Positions 2,559 to 59,585 are shown, counted from the first letter of the stretch. The stretch is DNA of 64,000 nt from Octopus vulgaris (GCA_951406725.2 OX597822.1:111848001-111912000), one strand, 5' to 3'. Translations and numbers: made by a program. The notes: generated by a model from the sequence alone, not told the origin.

Positions 2559-3763
2559 GTTTTAAATTGAACATCACTAAACGATAAATAGTCATAGCTG
2601 AACACAATTAAATACTCGTGTTAAATAATTTTCTAATCTAGCGTACGTTCTCATTTAAATTATTATTGTATACAGTCGGAACGAATCGAGACGATAAGTG
2701 TTCACAAGTGTCTTTTATGTATAGACAGTCATGTAATAGAATCTGGGGCATTTTCTATCTTTTAAGAATGTTATCTACAACGATTAGTACTGCAAAGTAC
2801 GTCAGGATATTCTTTCAACTGGAAGTGGGAGATAAATGAAAGGGTGTATCTGAAATGTTTTGTGATTACTCACAGGGAATCGACTACAATGTATCAAAGA
2901 AAAGAAAAACCCGTTTTTAGCAACATGTAAGTCGTCGTTGTGAGCGTTTCTAAGAAAATCGATAAATTAAAAATAAGGTGAAATTTATCTGTTTCAAGAA
3001 CGAGTTTTTATTATGTAACTATGAATGTTTTATTGTTGTTTAATAGTTCTGTGTGTGTCTTGTGTCTATTTAATCAACTTCCGCAACCCAAAACTGTTGC
3101 TAAAAGGAAATAAATCCAATTTGATAGTAATAAAAACTACATTAACATGAAGACTACAGTGTTTAGTTCAAATTAAATGCCCTCGTAGAGGAGAAGGAAT
3201 AATAGTTTATTTTGTACCTGACTGCTGTAGAAATGCAATTTATTTCCACTTGAGATTTTAGAGACTTGTTTTATCATTTTTATTTCATTGCAATTCAAGG
3301 GTTGATTGTATTATTTCGAGTGTATGAGTATGTTTAATCATCGCACACCCTACAATAGGAAACTCATTTGTTATGCAGTTTGATTAAAAAGAAGAAACAT
3401 TAAATAAATGACATGAGTGTGACACATATAGAACATTGTTGATCATTTGTTTTTCTTTACATAAAAACAAGCCAGAAACATTTGAGTGAGCCTCAAAGCA
3501 AAAGATAAGCGCTCAGTAAATGTAAACATTTTGCGGTTTCAAATTTCCTAGCTGATTCCTGTCAATTATATAATAGAAGCCGTTAAATGATTAATCTTCA
3601 CAGCAGAGTTCTTGAATTCGCTTGTCACAGTCCATTCTTTGTGAGCTTGAAAATATTGCCATCACACACACGCAATTACACAGATACACACACATAGATA
3701 AACACACACACACACACACACACGTACATATATAATGTTGAGAAGTAAACCAAGAACTATTAT

Positions 3764-3930
3764 TCAGTAGTCTTATTTTGTTAACGTGCTTTCACTTCAC
3801 TACCGAGCACAGCTCTGTGTGCCTTGGGAAGGTGCTGTCGTTTGTTGTGATGTACTTATTTTTACTATAATCGAAAGTGCTTTACGTTGCGCGGTGCCTA
3901 GTAGTGCTATTTTCTGTGTTATTATTTTCA
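3764..3930 (-). mobile_element. 3' end fragment of an R4/Dong-type non-LTR retrotransposon
   Basis: Homologous to 4828-5035. Minus strand reads ...KIALLGTA.. and ends in TAA repeats. Confidence 0.65.
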
Positions 3931-4115
3931 TATACAGTCAACAGATTACACTTTTCGAAAACAAAAGAATCTTAACATCGGGTTATAAAATATAAGAAAA
4001 TAAGAAGTTTGTTTTAAAAGTAATTTCATTAAAAGATGATATAAGTGTTATCTTAAGATGACAGTAACAGATGTTTGCTATTATGTACATTTAAAAGTAC
4101 TTTTGATAATGTTTA

Positions 4116-4165
<50 letters not shown>

Positions 4166-4191
4166 GTTATTATTATTGTTATTATTATTAT

Positions 4192-4739
4192 TGAGTGAGA
4201 GAACAGTTCATGCCATCAAAGTGACACTGGGGTAAAATATACGAAGCCCAGTATACCCATCATGACTACCCGTCTGATAAGGGTACACTAGGTACATGCA
4301 TCACAACCATATGTGCGCAACATGGTGATCTCATATCAAGATAAACAGCACATAACCTTGCAGGTGGGGCCCAGTTAGAATTTTCTTCAGGTTGAGTAGC
4401 CCATCCCGCTCAAAAGGTCCCTGAATAAGGGTTGTTTAAAGATGTTGAAAGAACCACCCATGTTTCCAGAGGTGAATTATTCAAACCCCAAAGAATCCCT
4501 CTCAACACATGGCTATGATGCTCCCCCACTACTTCTGCTCGTGATCAGAGATGCACATATCGTCAGCCACTAAGGGACATGCTCAACTGGTTAAGGTCAA
4601 ACGACTGACAAGCAAATCTGTGGTATTGAGCAGAATATTTGCTGTAGCCCATACCAAGACAAAACAATGTACATAATAACACTTCCAATCAGTTAAGATC
4701 AGAAGCCATGAGAGCCACTGCCTGGTACTGCATCAGGGC

Positions 4740-4741
<2 letters not shown>
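4192..4741 (-). mobile_element. About 550-bp non-coding interspersed repeat embedded in (TAA)n
   Basis: Reverse complement of 33811-34313 and of the more diverged 34436-34990. Flanked on both sides by TTA arrays. Confidence 0.8.
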
Positions 4742-4776
<35 letters not shown>

Positions 4777-4792
4777 ATTATTATTATTATTA

Positions 4793-4827
<35 letters not shown>

Positions 4828-4833
<6 letters not shown>

Positions 4834-5035
4834 TAGTTTTATTTTTATAGCGTGCTTTCACTTCACTACCGAGCGCAGCTCTGTGTGCCTTGGGTATGTG
4901 CTGTGATTTGTTGTGATGCTCTGATGGTTATTGAATGGAAAGTGTTCTGCGTAGGATGTGTGCAGTGCCTAGTAGTGCAATTTTCTGTATGTTATGTGTT
5001 TGTAAGTCCTGGTGTTTTTGTTATGTATTCGTCTG
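4828..5035 (-). mobile_element. 3' end fragment of an R4/Dong-type non-LTR retrotransposon
   Basis: Minus strand encodes KTPGLTNT*NIQKIALLGTAHILRRTLSIQ*, typical of the C-terminus of RLE-type elements. Flanked by TAA arrays. Confidence 0.75.
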
Positions 5036-5039
5036 AATA

Positions 5040-5077
<38 letters not shown>

Positions 5078-5088
5078 CATCATCATCA

Positions 5089-5153
<65 letters not shown>

Positions 5154-5329
5154 CATTATTATTATCATCATTATTATTGTTAATATCATTATTATTACTT
5201 GTACTCTCAATTTTGTTTCCATTTTTCGTCAAGTTTCCTCCCGGCATCTAGGGCGAAGAAACGCACTGTATTCGTTGATAAGCCATTAAAAGACAAGCAC
5301 CAGATTGTTCCTTTGCAAGATCAATGTTA

Positions 5330-19914: not shown

Positions 19915-22195
19915 ATCACTTTGACTTGATCACTTTGACCGACCAGTCCGTCAGGCGTCCATTTGACACCGCTGGTCACAGCACGCTGTCCACTCCTCGC
20001 TGGATCGCGCCTTTCTCATCCACGTGATCCCAATCGTCCTCCTGAAATCGTCACTCCGCCGTCGTGGAGGTCTTCCGGGTGGTCTTTTCCGCTCACGCGG
20101 GTACCACTCGACAACTGCGTGCGTCCACCGATTATCGGTGAGCCGGGCGATGTGTCCAGCCCATCTATACTTGCTGCGAGTATACTCTGCGATGACATCT
20201 CTCACGCCGGACTTCTTTCTGATGCTGCTGCTATTTATGTGCTCTCTCAACGAGATACCAAGCATTGACCTTTCTATGGCTCTTTGAGCCGTTATCAATC
20301 TTTGCTCTTCTCTCTTTGTGGTAGCCCATGTTTCACTACCATATAACATTGCAGGCAGAACTGCACTGTTAATGAGGTTGGCGCGGGTGGTCCTGTCCAA
20401 CCTTCCCTTGAGCATATCCCTTGGCTACCATGGCAGAGGCGAGGCAGCTCTACATCGGAAACAGCCTATTCAGGAAGAGGGAGAGGAAGAGATGGACTTG
20501 GATATCGCCGAACTCTAAGCACCGAAGCGAGATCGACTACATCCTGGTTGATAAGCGACGCATATTGCATGACGTCTCCGTCGTGACGCCATTCAACACC
20601 GGCAGCGATCATCGTCTGGTAAGGGCGAGGGTCGTCATCCACGAGAAGAGGGAGAAGATGGCGTTATATTTGGCGTCGAAGGGAAAAAGCGTCCGAGTCT
20701 ACAACGAGGCAAAGCTGCAGGAAGCCATCATGCAGAAAGACTGGTGCCAAGGAGACGACATAGACGATGACTACAACTCATTGATAGGGAAACTGAAGGA
20801 GTGTTTAAGGAAGGCTAAGGGTGTATGCCCAAGAGAAAAGAAGGGAAGAATCTCGGAAGAAACTACGAAGTTACTCGAGAAGAGGAAAAATATGAAGAGG
20901 ACTATTGAAGATCACCTTGAATATTCCATTCTCAGCAGAGTGATTCGTCAACAACTAAAGAAATACTTTGAGGCATACCGGATGGAGAAGCTTTTGAAGG
21001 CCGCAGAGGAAAAGAAGAGCCTCAAGAAATGCAAGAGGGACATGGTACTATATAGATCGGAGGTGACGGCCCTGAAAAATACAGATGGAATACCGGTCAA
21101 CGAGAAGAGCGAGATGAAAAAAGTTTGTGAAGACTTCTACACCAAGCTCTTTAAGTCTACCAGCCGTTACCACCACTCCAACAGGAAGAAAACGTGCCAC
21201 CTATCCTTGTCAGTGAGGTTGAAAGAGCCATCGGCTCGATGAAAAACGGAAAGGCTCCAGGAAAGACGGTATAACATCGGAGGTGCTAAAGTCAGGCAGA
21301 GAGCAGCTCTGGAAAATCCTCGCTGAGCGATTTACGCACTATCTAGACGAGGAAGAATTCCCTCGCAGTGGAAAGAGTCAAATACCATCCTGCTGTATAA
21401 GAAGGGCGACAGAGAAGATCTAAAGAACTACCGACCCATATGCCTGCTGTCTCACGTGTACAAGCTGTTCACGAAGATAATTCTGAACAGGTTGTCACGT
21501 CGTCTCGACGAACAACAACCGAGGGAGCAAGCAGGCTTCCGGAAGAACTACAGCACAATGGACCATATATTTGCTCTAACGCAACTGCTTGAGCGAGCAA
21601 ATGAGTACAAGCTGCCTCTTTGCGTTGCGTTTATAGATTATGAGAAGGCCTTCGATAGCGTCGAAACCAACGCAGTGCTGAACTCGCTGCAGAGGCAAGG
21701 AATCGAAGCGCAATATGTGCAGCTGCTCAGGGTGGCAAATTCCGGATGCACCACCGACATAGCTCTACTGTCATCACCCATACGAGTGCCGGTCGAGAAG
21801 GGAGTGAAGCAAGGAGATACAATCTCCCAAAAACTTTTCACTGCATGTCTCGAACAGATCATCAGAGGCATCGAATGGCAAGGTGGTGTCAACATCAATG
21901 GCGAGCTCCTCACTCACCTCCGTTTCGCTGACGACATCGTACTCATCGCTGAAAACATGGATCAGCTTCAGACCATGCTGACGGAGCTCGACATCAAAAG
22001 TTCTGCAGTAGGTCTCAAGATGAACCGCATGAAAACAAAGTTCATGCGGTCAGACAACATACCAACAGGTCGAATGGTGATCGGCAGTGATGAAACAGAG
22101 GAGGTGAGAGAATATGTCTACCTGGGACAAGTAAATATGTGCCGGGATATCAAAAAGGAGATCTCACGGAGATTAAGGGACGGATGGAAGGCGTT

Positions 22196-22198
<3 letters not shown>
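19915..22198 (-). mobile_element. RTE-clade LINE, 5'-truncated with inverted 5' segment
   Basis: 3' segment on the minus strand 19915-20420 (MLKGRLDRTTRANLINSAVLPAMLYGSETW...CDQRCQMDA*, short UTR with TCAAAGTGA repeats). The upstream EN-RT segment lies on the plus strand 20421-22198. (TA)n on both flanks. Confidence 0.9.
20421..22198 (+). pseudogene. RTE ORF: C-terminal APE endonuclease plus reverse transcriptase, frameshifted
   Basis: APE motifs WTW.SPN..EIDYIL and SDHRLV. RT motifs KNYRPICLLS, EQAGFR, FIDYEKAFDSV, GVKQGDTIS and LRFADDIVL. Frameshifts around 21160-21270. Confidence 0.9.
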
Positions 22199-22254
<56 letters not shown>

Positions 22255-43139: not shown

Positions 43140-44070
43140 ATTCCGTACTGCAGTATCCCTCAGGAGTAGGTGGTTAAAACAAGTTAAAATAATATGCAGA
43201 GAACACCACTAGAAAATACGAAAACTAAAAGAAGCAGCACATATGCTAGGACACAACAACCTCTTAAGAAGACCGAGTGCCGATATGAGCAGCATGTGGG
43301 AATCGGTATTAAGGAAGGAGAGGAGAATATTAGATTTATAAGCCCTGAAATTCATTCCACAGTTTTTGGTGGGAGGGCGAAATCATTTGAATTTGTGTGC
43401 GTGCTGGCTTGAATTTAGGGTTTAACGTTTTGGGGGAAGGACTGGTTATTAGGCGCATGAGTAGGAAGCGGTGGTGGCGCAGGGTGTCTGTTTATTTGCT
43501 ATTGTTTAGATTTCCGGACATGAATACATAGTCAACGCTTTAGTGACAACATAAAATGCATGAAATGTTGGTGATATTTGTGTATGGTTATGTGTGTATC
43601 TTTATATGTATACTTATACATATATAGCGAGAGAGAGAGAGTGAGAGAGATAAATGTGTATTTATATGTATGTATATGTATACTCTTTTACTCTTTTACT
43701 TGTTTCGGTCATTTGACTGCGGCCATGCTGGAACACCGCCTTTAATCGAGCAACTCGAACCCGGGACTTATTCTTTTGTAAGCCCAGTACTTATTCTATC
43801 GGTCTCTTTTGCCGAACCGCTAAGTAACGGGGACATAAACACACCAGCATCGGTTGTCAAGCAATGCTAGGGGGACAAACACAAACACACAAACACACAC
43901 ACGCATTGATATATATATATACATATATACGACGGGCTTCTTTCAGTTTCCGTCTACCAAATCCACTCACAAGGCTTTGGTCGGCCCGAGGCTATAGTAG
44001 AAAACACTTGCCCAAGGTGCCACGCAGTGGGACTGAACCCGGAACCATGTGGTTGGTAAACAAGCTACTT

Positions 44071-46102
44071 TATTTCATAAGATTTGCCACTAGGGCAGTA
44101 CAAAGAGTAGCTGCATGCTGGACAAAAAACATTAAAGAATGATGGTGATGGGAGAAGACGAAAGCGCCCGCCGACTTTCGCTTCTCTAAGACATTGTTCT
44201 TTTTTTTCAAAATTTGACAAAAAATTCAATAAATTATTACAAATTTTAAAAGAGGCAATAAACCTCTTTTTCAGTACAATACAAAATGTTCAATAGGCCT
44301 ATGTAACCCGGCCGACCATCGCTCTTGCCTCACCGAGGCAATAATCGCTGGTCAGGTCGTGGTCCAAAGGTATAATTTGGAATGAGTCCATCGGGAAGGA
44401 ACCCACGATCCTGCCTAGATAACCCCTCCCCATGACCTCCGCAGCCAGCTGCGAAGGCCACTCGGGGTCCTCCGTGCAGGACCGAAGTCCCTCCCAATGG
44501 CCTCCCTTTCTCATTTTACGCACTGTATTTTCCACTGTTCCTCCTTTGAAAAAGAGGAGCACAAATTTTTCCACAAACTGTCCCTCAGGCGGCACACCCG
44601 CCTGAGAAGACTTGGGAGACGCCGTCTGCGTATCACAATCCGCCGGCAGCGTTCCGTTTCTCTTTTTTTTTCTTCTTTTTGCCTTGGGCCACGGGAGGTT
44701 GAGGTTCCGGAGTTGCACACACCGGGTTCTCTTCTCCCGCAGTTTCCAGGTCTTTTGGTGGGTCGCCATTGCTCCCCACTTTTCTTTTTCTTTTAGAGGA
44801 AGTCTTTGCTTCCTCACTCTGTTTCTCTCCCTCCATTGGGGGGGGCAGGGAGAGGCTCCGATATCAACTGCTCCAGGATCCTACTTTGGTCCCTGGGGCA
44901 GTTCTTCTTAATGTGGCCGGTCTCCAGACACAGGTGACACTTGGTGGGGCGTCCCTCAAGCAACACCGGATACCTGTACCCGGCCATCCTCAGAAAGTCC
45001 GGCAAGACCAGACTTTTGGCTGATTGGGTCCATAGGGTCAAAGTGGCCTTTGACCCCTCCCAATCAGCCGCAGGCTGTATTTTCACATTTAGGAGCTTGG
45101 CGCTGCTACCACCCAGACCCCGGCGGATAGAGTCCTCTATCCACTCGGGTTCAATGCCGGGTGGTAGGCCGCAGATCCACGCTCTCAGCAATTTTTCTCC
45201 CTTGTAGTTAGGGAGAAACAAAATCTCCTTGCCCTCAATGGGCTTGCTTGCAAAGTCGCAAGCTGCTTTAGGGGAGTCAAACAGCAACCAAACCGTTGCG
45301 TATTTGACTCCCCGTGCAATGTATTTAACGACTGGCATATAGTCTGCCAGCTCGTTAATGATAGTTGCCTTTGGAAAAATAGCTATGGTGTTGAGCGACT
45401 TTGAATAAGTCCTCAACACCACGGTCTTGTCCTCTAGCTCCTTCAAGTATTTTTTGGGAAGTGCTAGGTCCCACACAATAAGTTCCTTTGCCATTTTGTA
45501 ACGGAATCCAATAAAAGTTCAACAGGTGTAAAAATAAATACGATAGAAAGAGTGAGAAGAGAAAACACAACAGAAGAGAAGAATTACAATAAAAATGACA
45601 GTTCAAAAAGAGTTCTTTTTTAAATACAAGATAGCTGGAAGGAAGAGAGTTCAAATTTGGCAAAGAAATTAATTTTTTGGCCGAAAAGGTACTCCTAGCC
45701 AAGCGTCCAAAACAGTCCTTGGTTACTCTTGGTGCTTCTTGGTAAATCCCAAAAAACAGTCCTTGAATATCCTTTGTGCTTCTTGGTAAATCCAATTTGA
45801 ATTAATTTTTGAGGAGGGGCTACGCCTCCTCAAAAAACACAATTCTCACTGCAAAGTGAGTCTTTATACCCGACAACAGGCAGGAAAAAATACCTGGAAC
45901 AAAGTGAAGTCTATTACCTGCTAAAAAATATTAATGCTAAATAACACTAAATGCTAAAAACATTAAAAGCAAGCAATAAACCTCACTAAGCTCCTAAAAA
46001 TATAAAACGCCTACCTGTCGTCGAGTCAAAAAGTTCAACAAAAGTTCAATAATTCACGTAGCAACACGTGACTTTTGGAGCAGCCAAAAAAACACGTCTG
46101 TC
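44071..46102 (-). mobile_element. ORF1-only non-autonomous LINE-like retroposon (copy 1)
   Basis: Bounded by an imperfect 16-17-bp TSD inside a SINE. About 600-nt 5' UTR, one Gag/ORF1-like ORF, about 230-nt 3' UTR ending TGCCCTAGTGGCA...GAAATA. No RT sequence. Confidence 0.8.
44299..45494 (-). pseudogene. Gag/ORF1-like nucleic-acid-binding protein with CCHC zinc knuckle (about 397 aa; two homopolymer frameshifts)
   Basis: CHLCLETGHIKKNC = C-x2-C-x4-H-x4-C. Basic linker SSKRKRK. Frameshifts map to the G8 (44838-44845) and T9 (44663-44671) runs. Colinear with 50844-52156. Confidence 0.8.
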
Positions 46103-46152
46103 TGGTAAGAAGCTACTTACCACACAGCCACGCCTACGCCTATGTATGTGTA

Positions 46153-50550: not shown

Positions 50551-50843
50551 TATTTACATTTGACGAATATTTGTCTTCATCATGTTTGTTGTTAGCACAA
50601 CGTTTCGGCTGATATATCCTCCAGGTTCTAATCAGAGTACCATAGGGCTTGGAGTACCTGAATGCCCAGACAATTTTTTTTGCTGTGTTTTGCTGAACTG
50701 TTGTTGTTTTTTTCTTCTATTGTGACTCTCTTAGTGAACTGTTTGCTTTTTCTTTTCTCCCCTTTTGTTTCCTTTTGATTTCTCTCTTTTCTTTTTGAAA
50801 TTTGTGACCTATTTTTTGAACTTTTTACTTTTTAATATTAAAC

Positions 50844-52156
50844 ATGGCAAAACCTACGGATAAGATTGTAGAATGGGAGATTGCCCCACTTAAGGAGTGG
50901 CTCAAACAGCATGAGGAGAGGACGGTGGTTTTGAGAACGTATTCGAAGGTTCTCGACACCATTGCCGTCTTCTCCAGGCAGATGATTGAGCAGGAGTTGG
51001 CGGAACATCTGCCAATCATTAAGTATATCTCTTGGGGTGTCAAATATGCAACGGTGTGGTTGCTGTTTGACACCCCAGAGGAGACTCGCAGTTTTGCGAG
51101 CCAGCCCTTTGAGGGTAAATTTATTTTGTTTGTTCCCACTTATTGTGGGGAAAAAATTGACGAGGGCCTGGGTCTGTGGTTTACCACCCGGAATTGGACC
51201 GCAGTGGATAGCGGATACTATCCGTCGGAGTCTGGGTAGCAGCGGAGCCAGACTCCTCAATGTCAAAATTCTTCATGCAGCTGATTGGGTTGGGGCAAAA
51301 GCTGTTTTGACCCTGTGGACCCTATCAGCTATGAATCTGGTTATGCCAGATTTTTTGAAAATGACCGGGTGCAGGTTTCTTGAGGGTCGAACCCCCAGGT
51401 GTCATCGGTGCCTGGAGCCTGGCCATATAAAGAACAACTGTACTGAGGAGCAAATTCCTGGAGCAGTTGATTGAGACCTCCGTAGAAGAAGGAACGAAGG
51501 CAGCCGAGGAGACGGAAGACTCCTCAAAGAAGGGCCGCAAGAGGAAGAAGGTGAGTAACAGTGTGTGCTCACCGAAGGATCTTAGGGGTGAGGGAGGGGA
51601 GGCGAAACTCCCGCTTACGGAGGGGACGCACCCTCCCTCAGTTGAAGGAAAAAAAGAGGAATAGGAAGAGAAACCGGACATTGCCGGCAGTCGGTGACAT
51701 AGCACCGAAATTTCCCGGAACCTTGCCGGCAGGGGTTGTGCCACCGGCAGGGGTTGTGCCACCGGCAGGTGAAAAGACACCGTTGGGGGAATTGTTCCAC
51801 CAACGGTAGAATTGACTACCTCGAACCCGGAGGAAGACGAATTATTGGTCTTCTTCTCCAGAGGCGGAGAAGTATAAGAGGTGGTGGAGAAGCACCATAA
51901 GGGAGTACCTTTAACCTTCACACAGGATCTGGAATGGCCTCCGCAGATAGTTGTGGAGGTCATAACGTTGTCCGCGTCGTATAGGCCGCAGGGTCTCAAT
52001 GAGAGACATCGCTTGTGGCCGGGCGACGTCGACTCGGATCTCGCCTTGGTCTTGAATAAGGCGTGGGCGATGGCGAAGTATACGGCACAAGCGATGTTGG
52101 GGAGGAATAGTGACAAGAGGTTGAAAAGCCCCAGTGTTATAATGTTTATTGTATAA
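50844..52156 (+). pseudogene. Gag/ORF1-like CCHC protein of an ORF1-only retroposon (copy 2), disrupted
   Basis: Homologous to 44299-45494 (TVVLRTYSK, GVKYATVWLLFD, RAW.CGLPPGI, CHRCLEPGHIKNNC, EWP.Q...EV). Frameshifts and stops. No ORF2 downstream. Confidence 0.8.
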
Positions 52157-53830
52157 TGTTTAATGTTTATTGTATGTTATTATGTTTAAGAGGCTTAACG
52201 CCCGAATTTTTAAATGGCCTATTAGTCCATAACTGTAAAACTGGAGTAAGAGGTTCGTGTGCTACATTTTATCGACAGACCAAGGCCACTCTTTCTGGGA
52301 CAATTTATTTGGAGTGAGGTCGCGTTTTCCGTACTATAGCAATGTTATTTTTGCTAGCGCTATCATCCTTAAACTTGAAGTGTTCTTTTTATAATTAACA
52401 TGTGAACACACTTCAAAATAGTGGAATGCATGTTGCAAGATTTAGCTTTCTGATATGAAAAAAGTAATACATAAAATTTCGGAAATATTAGTAAAGTAAA
52501 AAGATTTGCCATAAATCAGATACTCGAACCACACATCTTTCTTTAGAGAGTATCAGAACTCTGTGTGAAACTGATAGCCACACATACCTTGCACACCTTT
52601 CCAACAGCATCGCCTATGCCTGCGTGGCACCCGACTGCAACACTTGCCATGGTAGTAATTCAAAATTCAAAGAAATAGAAAACATTCTATATAAATGATG
52701 GAAGAGAAACGTTAGTATTATGAGAACCATACATTACTTTTAAACGAAATAAAGAATATCATCTTCAGAAAACCAAATTTGGATTCATAAATCTACGAAC
52801 GTGTAAGATAAGTAGATTCCATCATGTATATATGTGTGTGTATCTGTAAAGATGTAAGCACGAATGCTTATGTGTATTTATGCATACAAAATTTCAAGCG
52901 CTACACTATGAATCATGTAACAATATACAACATAAATGAATTGAGATGAAATGATTTGCAAGAAATCTTGTGTGTTCTGGGAAATATGTCCAACGTCCCA
53001 TGGGCAATTTATGAAAATAACACAAACTAACGAAATCACATCATTGAAGACGTATTCTGTGTAATATAATTCTTTTCAATAGCTTTAGATATGACATATT
53101 TTACTTAGAAGACGCCTACTGGACATGATTAAAATCAAAATATCTATACAAAAGATGTAGCAGACGTTCCATGAGTAGTTGTCGAAATTTTGAAGCCATT
53201 CACTTTTAACTAAAGAGATGAGAGATAAGTAATTATCTTTTTATGTAAAGTCGACAGCGTTGTGTCAAAAGCTCTGCCGCTATACACGAGTGAAAACGGA
53301 ATATTGCAGCAAGGGTGATTCCGTTTGTATGAGGAAAAGCTCTTTCTAAATCGCTGCTTTTATATCAAGATGAAAATAAATCATTGCAGCCACACGGGTT
53401 ACGTTTCGAAGATGTGAGGCTTAAGAATGTTCTAGCTCGAACATTAAACAATGTGCCACGTATGGATATTAATAGTTGCAAAATATATCTGTCCGTCTGC
53501 GAATAATATCTAATGATAGACAATTGGAGCAGGAATTGCAGATGAGTCGTGAAAGACAAACAAGAAATACTTAAACATGAGCCTGTGGACCAAATATACT
53601 TATATGTGTGCATATATATGAAGAGAAAGAAAGGAATATAGAAATAGAGATGAATATGTTAATTGTCAGGCATTGATCATAAATATGATTTCTAACATCA
53701 AGCAATTTTACCTGAGAAAATACAATGATTAAAGTGAACGAATACTATTGCAGTTGTCTTTGTGAAACGAACTGAGTTGAAAAAGCTGGAATTATCTGAA
53801 GCGCAAACGAGTGTTTATGTGTGCGTGTGT

Positions 53831-55918: not shown

Positions 55919-58900
55919 ATGCCTCCGAAAAACAAGAGTACTCTTACAGAGACAGTCACCAATAAAACCATTCTAAAAGTACTCAAAGTACTCAATACAC
56001 ATCTACTTACATTCTCCAAAAAATTGACGAACTTCTCCATCAATCCCGGGACAACTCAGAAAACAACCATCATCAACAACTTTCGGATAAAATTGATGTA
56101 AACCTAAACGAAATCAACACTACACTGAAAACTCTACTTACCAATTCAACGCCAAAGAGACCTCAGACACCACTCAACACACAGAAGGAACACACTTCAA
56201 CCCCAGCACAACGCATTAAAAACCAGATCATCACTACTTGGACTAAGAAACTACACAACAGAAAACTTCTCTTCTGGAACATGCTCAAAAACCAAAACAA
56301 AGCTGAAATTTACGACAAATGGTTAAACTCCCTCCCCTATCATACTACCCCGAAAATTCCAAATCAAACACATCCCAGACGAACCTGAAAAACAATGCTC
56401 CCTAAGAGAAAAACTAACATTGGAAAAAATGAAAACTGAAGTAGAACTTCTAAAACTCAGAGCACAAAACCACGAACAAAAATACACAAAAATAGACGAT
56501 GAGATACTTCTAGAACTAACCTCACACACCAACGAACAGCCCCTCGAACTTGTTATTAAACTATGGAAAGATGAATGTGAAAAGGAAGAACGAACCTCCC
56601 TTAAACGCTGGGAAAACAACAAAGATTTCTTCCTCAACTATGAAACACAATTCATATTAAACCATAAATCCAAAAACCCATTCATAAAAGTACCCACAAC
56701 ACAGACTTCCACTGTACCCCATAAACACCATTCCAAACCGCACCTCAAATACACATACTCTCCAAACCCCCTCCTAACAGGACACAACCTCCCCCAACCA
56801 TATAAAAAACCTTTTCCCCCCCGAAACATCTCAAACAAGACCCACCACAAAACCTGGTTTTCCAGTCACTCTAACACCCCTCCCCACCGATAAGAACCTT
56901 CAAGAACCTCCCATACACTAGGAATTATCCCCCCTCAATGCTACCCTCCCTCACACTAATAACAAACAAGGCATCCTACCCACACCGATACATATAATAC
57001 CCACCCAACGAACCCCCTATAGTCCACCCATCCAACAACCACATTCCTACCACATTTCCTACAGATCTCCAAACCCTCACATCCCACACGAACCCAATCA
57101 CCACAACTACATACCCCCTACATCCCCCCATACAATCTACCAGACACACACCCACAAACCCATCGCATTTCTCACAAAACCTTACACCATCGCATCCCAT
57201 ACCAACATAAATACCACAACTACCTACCCCCCCCCCAACCTCCCCACCCCAAAACACTCCTACACATACAACCAGAACTTTAACAAAGAATACACCCCTT
57301 ACCTCAACAACCATTTTTTAGACAGAGGGGGAAAATACAAAACCACCGCTAACACAGACCCAAAATAAGAAAACAAAGATTATAAACCTCTCCAGCCAAA
57401 CACTGACACCAACCCAAATCAACATCCTAGCAAGAGGTTTGAATGACGTTTCTGAATTCTGCAGAAAACTTCGCCTAACAGAAGCTTTGACAGATATCAA
57501 CAATGGGGACGATTCATTGATCAGAAATAAAAGCAACTTCCTACCATCAAAAGGGAGAAATAAAACACTGGACGATTTCTGCAAACACATCCAGAGTCTC
57601 CCCTTTACCCCAAGCAAAACCAAGGTAAAATCCAATTTCAGTAAGGAAGAATGGGAAAACCTACGTGACATACAACTGGATAAAAACCTCACCATCAAAG
57701 AAGCGGACAAAGGGAGTGCTGTGGTCCTTATGGACACGGAATTTTATAAACACCTAGTGTTTTCCATGCTTAACAATAACATTTTCTATGAGGTTATTAA
57801 CAACTACAAACAACAAAAAACAATCAGAAACCTCACCACACTCATACGCCAACACGGTCAGGGACTCACAGAAAAAGAAAGGGATTATATCACCATTTTC
57901 AAATGCAAGCCCAGCCTTTTTTATGGCCTTCCTAAAATCCATAAAAACAAATACATCACCGAAGCCTGCAAACTCTCCACTGACATCCACATCAACATCA
58001 AAGCACCGGAGGACCTAAAACTAAGGCCCATCGTGGCTGGTACCTCCTGTGAAACACACCGCCTGAGTAACTTCCTAGACATCCTTTTGAAACCTTTCCT
58101 TACCCACATCAAAAGTTTCATTAGGGATGATCTGGACATGCTCAAACACCTCCCGAAAACAGTTAACGAGGAGGCACTCCTGGTATCCTTTGATGTCATC
58201 AACCTCTACACCAACATCCCACATGAGTATGGTATAGAGGCAATTGACTTCTGGCTAGAAAAACACCCAGAGACATTCCCTGACCGCATTAACAAGTCTT
58301 TTATTACAGAATCTCTCAAGTTCATTCTGACAAACAATTTTTTTCTCTTCAACGACACATACTACCGTCAAAAATGTGGTATTGCGATGGGTACCAAGGC
58401 TGCACCAGTCCTTGCGAACCTCATAATGGGTTACTTCGAACTGTCACTCTATGAAATATCAAGCCAGAAATTTGGACATGTTTTCCACACCTACCTAATG
58501 GAAAACTGGAAAAGGTATTTAGATGATTGTTTCAGCATATGGAAAGAACCTTATGAAAAACTCCTGGAATTCAAAACCATACTAAACAACATACATCCCA
58601 ACATCCAATTCACTATGGAATTAAGCAAACATCATCTCCCATTCCTTGATCTCCTAATTATAAAAACACCTAAGAACCAAATCATAACAGACATCTACCA
58701 CAAACCTACAGACTCACAACAATACCTCCTCTTTAGTTCATGCCACCCAAAACACACCAAGACAAATATCCCTTTCAATTTAGCTAAAAGGGTGTGCACC
58801 ATTGTCTCGGATCCAAAAACACGAGAAATACGCCTTCAAGACCTCAAAAAAACACTATTACAACGTCAATATCCCTCCACCCTTATAGAGTATGGAATAA

Positions 58901-59585
58901 AACGCGCCAAAGAACTAGATAACACTACACTGAAAACCACCCAACCTAACACCACACACAACCTCAAAATACTTCCATACATTTCCACCCACAACCCCAA
59001 AAATATCGAAGCATACACCACAATCATACAAAACCTCAGTCTACTGTCAACAGACCCAAAAATGAAAAACATTATAAATACACACAAAATCCTCAAATGT
59101 AAAAGGCAACACAAATCTTTAAAAAAACTCTTGACAAATGCCAAACTTCACACACCACATCCACCCCCAACAGTAAAAAATGTGCACGCTCAAACTGTGG
59201 TACCTGCCCCTTTCTACTTGAAGGCTCTGAATTTACCTTCAAACAAGGTACGAAGTTTAAAATCAAGACTAACTTCTCCTGTTCCTCCGAGAACCTTATC
59301 TACGTTCTCACATGCGCTGGTTGCCAACATAATTATGTTGGACAAACGAGTCTCCCGTTACGTAAACGAGTAACGGTGCATAAAGAACAAATAAATCGCC
59401 CGGAATACCGACAAATTCCACTGAGTGACCACTTAGACTCATGTGCTAAAGACTTAAACCCCAAATTCTATATATTCCCCTTCTACCAATGTAAAGACGG
59501 GATCACCACACAGGAGAGAATTAACAAGGAGAATCTCTTTATTGAAAAATTCCAAACACAACTTAATATGCAAACTCCTCGTTGA
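55919..59585 (+). pseudogene. Penelope polyprotein: N-terminal region, RT, Cys linker, GIY-YIG endonuclease (frameshifted)
   Basis: 644-aa ORF 57439-59373 with ADKG, FYGLPKIHK, LRPIV, SFDVINLYTNIP, GIAMG and RYLDD. After a shift in the A-run near 59175 it reads KCARSNCGTCPF...NLIYVLTCAGCQHNYVGQT..LRKRVTVH...LN*. Confidence 0.92.

Follow-up and report, generated by a model that had tools for sequence, protein, structure and literature searches.

The window analyzed here, a stretch of 64,000 nucleotides from Octopus vulgaris (GCA_951406725.2 OX597822.1:111848001-111912000), is repeat-rich animal DNA and harbors two copies of an ORF1-only element, copy 1 on the minus strand and copy 2 on the plus strand. 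Copy 2 and the repeat in which it lies have the following parts (positions counted from the first letter of the window):

50557..50624, plus strand: end piece of a different high-copy repeat, interrupted by copy 2; related contigs diverge after 50624
50625..52260, plus strand: copy 2, a decayed ORF1-only element, 5′-truncation probable, 3′ end approximate
50625..50843, plus strand: 5′ UTR remnant, matching the last ~200 nt of the 609-nt 5′ UTR of copy 1
50844..51149, plus strand: ATG and first RRM-like domain, with TVVLRTYSK at 50922; fold taken from the model of copy 1
51147..51156, plus strand: frame break at a G/A run, which is 1 base shorter in some related contigs
51157..51447, plus strand: second RRM-like domain, then the only CCHC knuckle (51397-51447); 9 nt are deleted near 51376
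51452..51820, plus strand: acidic/basic low-complexity linker with two frame changes and stops
51821..52156, plus strand: C-terminal module, homologous to that of copy 1, with an internal TAA (51875) and a terminal TAA (52154)
52157..52260, plus strand: AT-rich non-coding 3′ tail without ORF2; its likeness to the tail of copy 1 is weak

Elsewhere in the window lie a Penelope-like element (55966-59585, plus strand) with reverse transcriptase (RT; E 1.6e-6) and GIY-YIG (E 7.9e-5) domains, broken frames and a strong strand skew, and a LINE (19951-22253), which we take to be of the RTE type, with an endonuclease remnant and an RT on the plus strand (20412-22253, RT E 1.4e-32). The stretch 19951-20424, just upstream on the minus strand, resembles by eye the C-terminal part of the RT of this LINE, a possible inversion.

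An earlier note on this DNA, made from its sequence alone, had described 50844-52250 as one open reading frame and had let the element begin at 50844. Translated from the ATG at 50844, copy 2 runs into a stop after 131 codons, and several frame breaks and four stops in the frame of the C-terminal module (51662, 51695, 51770 and 51875) follow; the linker contains an A7 run at 51649 and an 18-bp tandem duplication (51726-51769), and besides the 9-nt deletion there is one of 5 nt near 51455. The element itself begins upstream, at 50625, where the host repeat is broken (75-134 contigs per run continue differently past 50624) and from where the DNA is homologous to the 5′ UTR of copy 1 (score 91.5, reached by 0 of 500 dinucleotide shuffles). 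The continuation of the interrupted repeat has no match within the 64-kb window, and a search for a target-site duplication around copy 2 found none; because a 3′ duplication and the rest of the host repeat are both absent, the 3′ side of copy 2 was likely lost by a later deletion.

Copy 1 is a bounded insertion of 2.0 kb:

44071..46102, minus strand: copy 1, a 2032-bp element; ATG at 45494, stop at 44301-44299
46103..46118, minus strand: 5′ target-site duplication, inside a SINE head
44054..44070, minus strand: 3′ target-site duplication, one base and one gap different from its 5′ counterpart

The SINE is split by copy 1, and its halves overlap by 17 nt, which gives a target duplication of 16-17 bp. 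The 5′ UTR of 609 nt contains a 44-bp tandem repeat, the reading frame has two breaks, both at homopolymer runs (C8 at 44845, A9 at 44671), and the tail between the stop and the target duplication is 228 nt long, leaving no space for an ORF2. The 3′ end is AATAAA without poly(A). On the minus strand the tail (44071-44300) can form several hairpins (z −2.2; 2 of 200 shuffles fold equally well), which are a candidate recognition signal for a helper RT. LTR-like or other terminal repeats in copy 1 were considered and rejected, the likeness between its 5′ and 3′ parts being reached by 15-41 of 500 shuffles. No match of the tail to other LINEs in the 64-kb window was found, and Rfam gave no family at gathering score. 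The insertion point lies between two parts of the SINE head that are presumably A-box-like and B-box-like; a tRNA gene search made no call, the SINE head included. The SINE has a further copy at a distance of 68 bp from copy 2, which lies outside it.

The N-terminal half of the protein encoded by copy 1 was modelled with AlphaFold2 from 34 sequences with a mean pLDDT of 87. With this model Foldseek retrieves tandem RRM proteins (best E 3.1e-5), and VIA-align superimposes each of its halves on single RRMs with Z 8-9.5 and an rmsd of 2-3 Å; residues ~11-100 and ~100-181 of the model are RRMs and residues 185-200 the knuckle, which Pfam detects as zf-CCHC with E 0.0015-0.015 (copy 2 with 19 bits, below the cut-off of 20.8). 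By ESM features the nearest proteins are eukaryotic CCHC and ZCCHC3-RBD clusters (0.92-0.93); matches in a PDB sequence search were limited to the knuckle and to low-complexity stretches. Since an RRM immediately upstream of a CCHC knuckle defines the type I ORF1 proteins of LINEs, described for many clades including I, Jockey, R1, Tad1, plant L1 and L2 (PMC4120745), the N-terminal half, with two RRMs and one knuckle, is predicted to have the type I architecture. Tandem RRMs are likewise a feature of type I proteins (PMC4120745, PMC5203782), whereas those of Jockey, L2 and CR1 are described with three knuckles (PMC4120745) and the octopus protein has a single one, followed by an extra module without a Pfam match. 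The protein also resembles the ZCCHC3-type RBD-RBD-CCHC arrangement (PF23057/PF23058; ESM score 0.92, 178 of 256 features common), which belongs to a single intact gene, whereas the octopus element is multi-copy and decayed; neither PF23057 nor PF23058 is among the 25 families listed as HMM matches for the 34 aligned relatives.

RRM/CCHC variants of ORF1 from non-mammalian animals are stated to be consistent with Tx1 (PMC5203782), and the octopus ORF1 is such a variant, which is consistent with this clade and non-diagnostic of it. L1/Tx1 is our best lead, the element itself being without an RT by which it could be placed. The two insertion sites in the window (n = 2) are a SINE head for copy 1 and another repeat for copy 2; many, not all, Tx1 families have a target-sequence preference.

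Four public runs were found with copy 1, and their contigs were placed on 50557-53560 at an identity of at least 80%. On this stretch each run has 3258 to 5310 contigs, those of the flanking repeat included; no bin between 50658 and 52273 is left uncovered, individual positions have as many as 83-90 different contigs, and the contigs are 80-99%, mostly 90-95%, identical to copy 2. Copy 2 thus belongs to a dispersed multi-copy octopus family, the two copies in the window sitting in different host repeats. The G/A run at 51147-51156 is one base shorter in 3, 13, 2 and 4 contigs of the four runs, respectively. The flank 52274-52778 has no contig cover, which suggests that the exact locus of copy 2 is absent from the four contig runs, although such a gap proves nothing. 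Among the 356 positions at which contigs and window differ, the 40 best supported include 32 in the ORF, 29 of them with a clear frame; 22 of these 29 private differences of copy 2 are non-synonymous and 7 synonymous, close to the neutral expectation. Copy 2 is a dead, neutrally decayed copy without a function of its own.

The closest protein is encoded by LOC115225585 (P0001) of Octopus sinensis, an annotated gene with three RefSeq protein accessions, whose product is 68% identical to copy 1 (E 1.6e-99; the one match among 302 candidates) and in a tblastn-type comparison no more complete than the window copies, ending right after the basic tract. A tree of 25 rows groups copy 1, copy 2 and P0001 in a single clade (96/100), whose stem has a length of 1.63 changes per site. 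Searching 1.84 billion representatives with phmmer gave 44 matches, about 30 of them RRM-knuckle proteins at 18-32% identity and the rest mostly knuckle repeats; among the 21 relatives looked up, the 12 that carry an organism name are all from octopods. Longer homologues (397-2000 aa) of the N-terminal half of copy 1 were not found. Confirmed loci in metagenomes numbered 0 for P0048 (201 candidates) and 0 for the close pair (378 candidates), and confirmed loci in viral contigs also numbered 0 (31 candidates). In a further O. sinensis protein (P0025, XP_029639579.1) the first ~45 residues of the ORF1 (55% identical) are joined to an integrase core domain; it is likely a gene-prediction chimera of nested elements. 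Members of a wider octopod family (P0008, P0014, P0019, P0029, P0036 and P0035/P0048) have the order RRM-RRM-CCHC and a conserved C-terminal module of their own without a Pfam family. This family is large and divergent and is annotated as uncharacterized genes. Several members of the wider family lie on contigs of 1.5-2.2 kb, one on a contig of 5.7 kb.

Copy 2 (ATG at 50844, plus strand) and copy 1 (ATG at 45494, minus strand) are colinear from start to end. The identity of roughly 60% that had been estimated by eye for the N-terminal half comes to 63%, the same residue being encoded by 57 of 99 and 66 of 97 codons in two segments, together 123 of 196, and the five nucleotide differences within TVVLRTYSK are exactly the synonymous ones that had been named (acg/acc, gtt/gtg, aga/agg, acg/act, tcg/tca). 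The earlier note had set a dN/dS well below 1 as the test of its claim that ORF1 stayed under purifying selection. By the method of Nei and Gojobori the N-terminal half gives dN 0.236, dS 1.165 and dN/dS 0.20 (bootstrap 0.12-0.31), with 49, 33 and 91 differences at the first, second and third codon positions. The RRM-RRM-knuckle half has therefore been under purifying selection in the source lineages, which confirms this part of the claim; copy 2 itself, with its 22 non-synonymous differences out of 29, has not. The same dN/dS is expected from the ORF1 of any active LINE and does not place the selection after the loss of ORF2.

The statement that no ORF2 follows copy 2 held: the longest stop-free sense run in the following 2030 nt is 86 codons, and Pfam searches at E ≤ 1 in the three sense frames, read through stops, gave no match in the 2 kb after copy 2 or the 1.2 kb after copy 1. 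We consider it likely that this dispersed octopus family, with a predicted RNA-binding protein of the LINE ORF1 kind, consists of non-autonomous, HAL1-like LINEs of ~2 kb whose members at no time contain an ORF2. Several points speak against an ORF1-only element of this kind: both ends are defined in copy 1 only, copy 2 is without a target duplication and may have lost its 3′ end, copy 1 ends without poly(A), the two tails are only weakly alike, the C-terminal module shows no significant constraint, and a frame change at the same A-run separates it from the N-terminal half in both copies. The comparisons within the window found neither an autonomous partner nor a shared 3′ tail. A rarer sister with an ORF2 may exist, since two contigs near the end of the ORF have 93 and 69 unaligned letters (the side is ambiguous) and the loose ends listed are only 24 of 1734.

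ORF1-only LINEs are a known kind of element, of which the octopus family is a further member. With HAL1 (from L1), HeT-A (from Jockey) and Ag-Sponge (from CR1) (PMC5786205, PMC5753468) the octopus element has in common one ORF1-like gene, no ORF2 (in copy 1 up to its 3′ end, in copy 2 within the following 2 kb), dispersed copies, a probable insertion of the retrotransposition type and an ORF under selection between lineages. It differs from HAL1, described with the order coiled-coil/RRM/CTD, by its type I ORF1 (two RRMs, one knuckle and the C-terminal module), from HeT-A by not being telomeric, and from all three by its mollusc host. With the L1-Tx1 elements of O. vulgaris it has in common the host group and an RRM/CCHC ORF1 consistent with Tx1 (PMC5203782), whereas the insertions reported for the recently active L1-Tx1 families average about 5.4 kb (2,288,644 bp/421, our division; PMC13282606), as compared to 2.0 kb and no RT here.

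By analogy to these systems, transcription of the source elements would start in the 5′ UTR, and the ORF1p that they encode would coat its own RNA (cis preference, as stated for retroposon proteins in PMC10294476), so that the ORF would be kept by selection. An autonomous LINE of the APE type, most likely from the L1/Tx1 clade, would supply the RNP with ORF2p for insertion by target-primed reverse transcription. Possible helpers are the L1-Tx1 families of O. vulgaris, for which 80 families, 56 Mb and 13 recently active families are given (PMC13282606). The proteins of HeT-A, HAL1 and Ag-Sponge, the non-autonomous LINEs in which an ORF1 is present, have been suggested to multimerize with those of the autonomous partner (PMC5786205). 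That ORF1p is needed in cis, as the earlier note had concluded, is a reasonable inference from the analogy to HAL1, and one loss of ORF2 before the lineage split is the simplest reading.

Alternatively, the copies could come from ordinary autonomous LINE families that had this ORF1 including the module, each copy losing its ORF2 late and independently, through an internal deletion or premature polyadenylation; dN/dS would then reflect selection in autonomous elements alone. Loss of ORF2 does recur: HAL1 is reported to have arisen several times (PMC5753468), and ~40% of Drosophila telomeric families are reported to be ORF1-only (PMC13534243). Consistent with separate losses, the tails of copies 1 and 2 are not clearly homologous (their weak likeness is reached by 44 of 500 shuffles, and the match of a tail motif chosen by eye by 16 of 2000 shuffles and 12 of 3170 window segments), their ORF-to-tail junctions are unlike, and one distant relative lies on a contig of 5720 nt, a size that would fit ORF1 plus ORF2. 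On the other hand, ORF2 is absent from both window copies, and contigs of at least 80% identity track copy 2 beyond the end of the ORF into the tail; of the contigs placed on copy 2, 1-2% continue with a different sequence, and the 24 loose ends listed of 1734 include none within 52085-52273 and none that turns into an ORF2. We regard separate losses as unlikely, if by no means far-fetched.

The earlier note had described the C-terminal module as kept in both copies and possibly specific to the family. Homology between the copies was borne out: the modules of copy 1 and copy 2 align with a score of 70, which 0 of 2000 shuffles reach (maximum 55), and by BLASTP 25 of 85 residues are identical, 16 of 42 in the first half. 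Significant constraint was not seen, dN/dS being 0.67 (0.23-1.73) over the 42 codons of the first half, with 15, 14 and 19 differences at the three codon positions, and 0.66 in the poorly aligned second half; nor was a confident fold obtained, AlphaFold2 with five distant tails giving a pLDDT of 46.6. Pfam finds no match for the module, and a PTB/PID identity (best ESM score 0.86, 118-124 shared features) was not accepted.

Six distant octopod relatives have a module at the same position, in one frame with the knuckle, and in leave-one-out comparisons of these modules, with windows anchored on a shared motif, 5 of 6 beat all 300 shuffles. The module of copy 2 aligns with them with few gaps at a score that 69 of 300 shuffles reach (hhalign probability 0.4%), its best pairwise value against the distant tails being 6 of 300 among 30 comparisons, and that of copy 1 at a score reached by 300 of 300; against P0048 hhalign gives a probability of 1.4%. 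These scores lend homology to the distant modules no statistical support. We hold it probable that the module is a diverged version of the one found in other octopod ORF1-like proteins; it may also be specific to the family. It is likely the last domain of ORF1p, in frame with the rest, and could be a fast-evolving part for oligomerization or docking of ORF2p.

This placement has to be weighed against a shorter protein, in which ORF1p ends at ~285 residues, just past the basic tract, and the module lies in a frame of its own, translated only after a +1 shift at the A-run or no longer at all. At one and the same A-rich basic tract (51649-51697, plus strand; 44680-44633, minus strand) the frame changes to +1 in copy 1 as in copy 2, and over 71 nt the two align without an indel; a TGA in the frame of the linker is aligned in both (51695 and about 44635), P0001 stops at 281 aa at this very tract, and the dN/dS of the module, with its interval from 0.23 to 1.73, is not a significant coding signature. 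However, A-runs are indel hot spots, the six distant relatives carry their module in the frame of the knuckle, and the net length of five contig pieces across the A-run agrees with a tract that is 4 nt shorter and in frame, although the test is weak: at the 51147 break it recovered the expected phase for 0 of 4 pieces. Independent slippage at the A-run is likelier than a conserved stop or shift, and an ORF1p that ends before the module we hold to be improbable.

It is very improbable that selection acted on a domesticated host gene family of ZCCHC3-like RNA binders, from which the copies would have arisen as processed retrocopies: the closest protein does come from an annotated gene with three RefSeq accessions, ZCCHC3-RBD clusters are among the ESM neighbours and copy 1 is mRNA-like up to its terminal AATAAA, but that protein has no advantage in completeness over copies 1 and 2, the four runs contain, at 80-99% identity, dozens of different variants for a position, another piece of ORF1 is fused into an integrase-bearing gene model, the many divergent subfamilies fit a transposon radiation, and where a domesticated gene should be an intact low-copy locus under selection, there are frame breaks, stops and many copies.

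Returning to the ORF1-only LINE as the preferred explanation, we put forward, as a tentative extension, that the family is an old octopod lineage in which ORF2 was lost once, whose subfamilies have diverged by over one synonymous change per site and whose autonomous sister with the same ORF1 is gone. Such a lineage would survive on the ORF2p of another LINE via its own fast-evolving ORF1p, in which the module, translated perhaps after a +1 frameshift at the A-run, would be the docking part, and much of the wider, 20-30% identical octopod family of ORF1-like proteins may be of the same kind.

Our literature search found no octopus ORF1-only LINE described; the family may already be in Repbase, Dfam or the Zenodo library of PMC13282606. 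LINE surveys based on RT are blind to ORF1-only elements, and gene annotation labels their copies as "uncharacterized proteins". To the ORF1-only LINEs reported from mammals, flies and mosquitoes in PMC5786205 the octopus family would add the molluscs and a type I ORF1 with a single knuckle. If one ancient loss of ORF2 is true, a dN/dS of 0.2 maintained across a dS of more than 1 would be a clean natural test of an element whose ORF1p acts in cis and whose ORF2p is borrowed.
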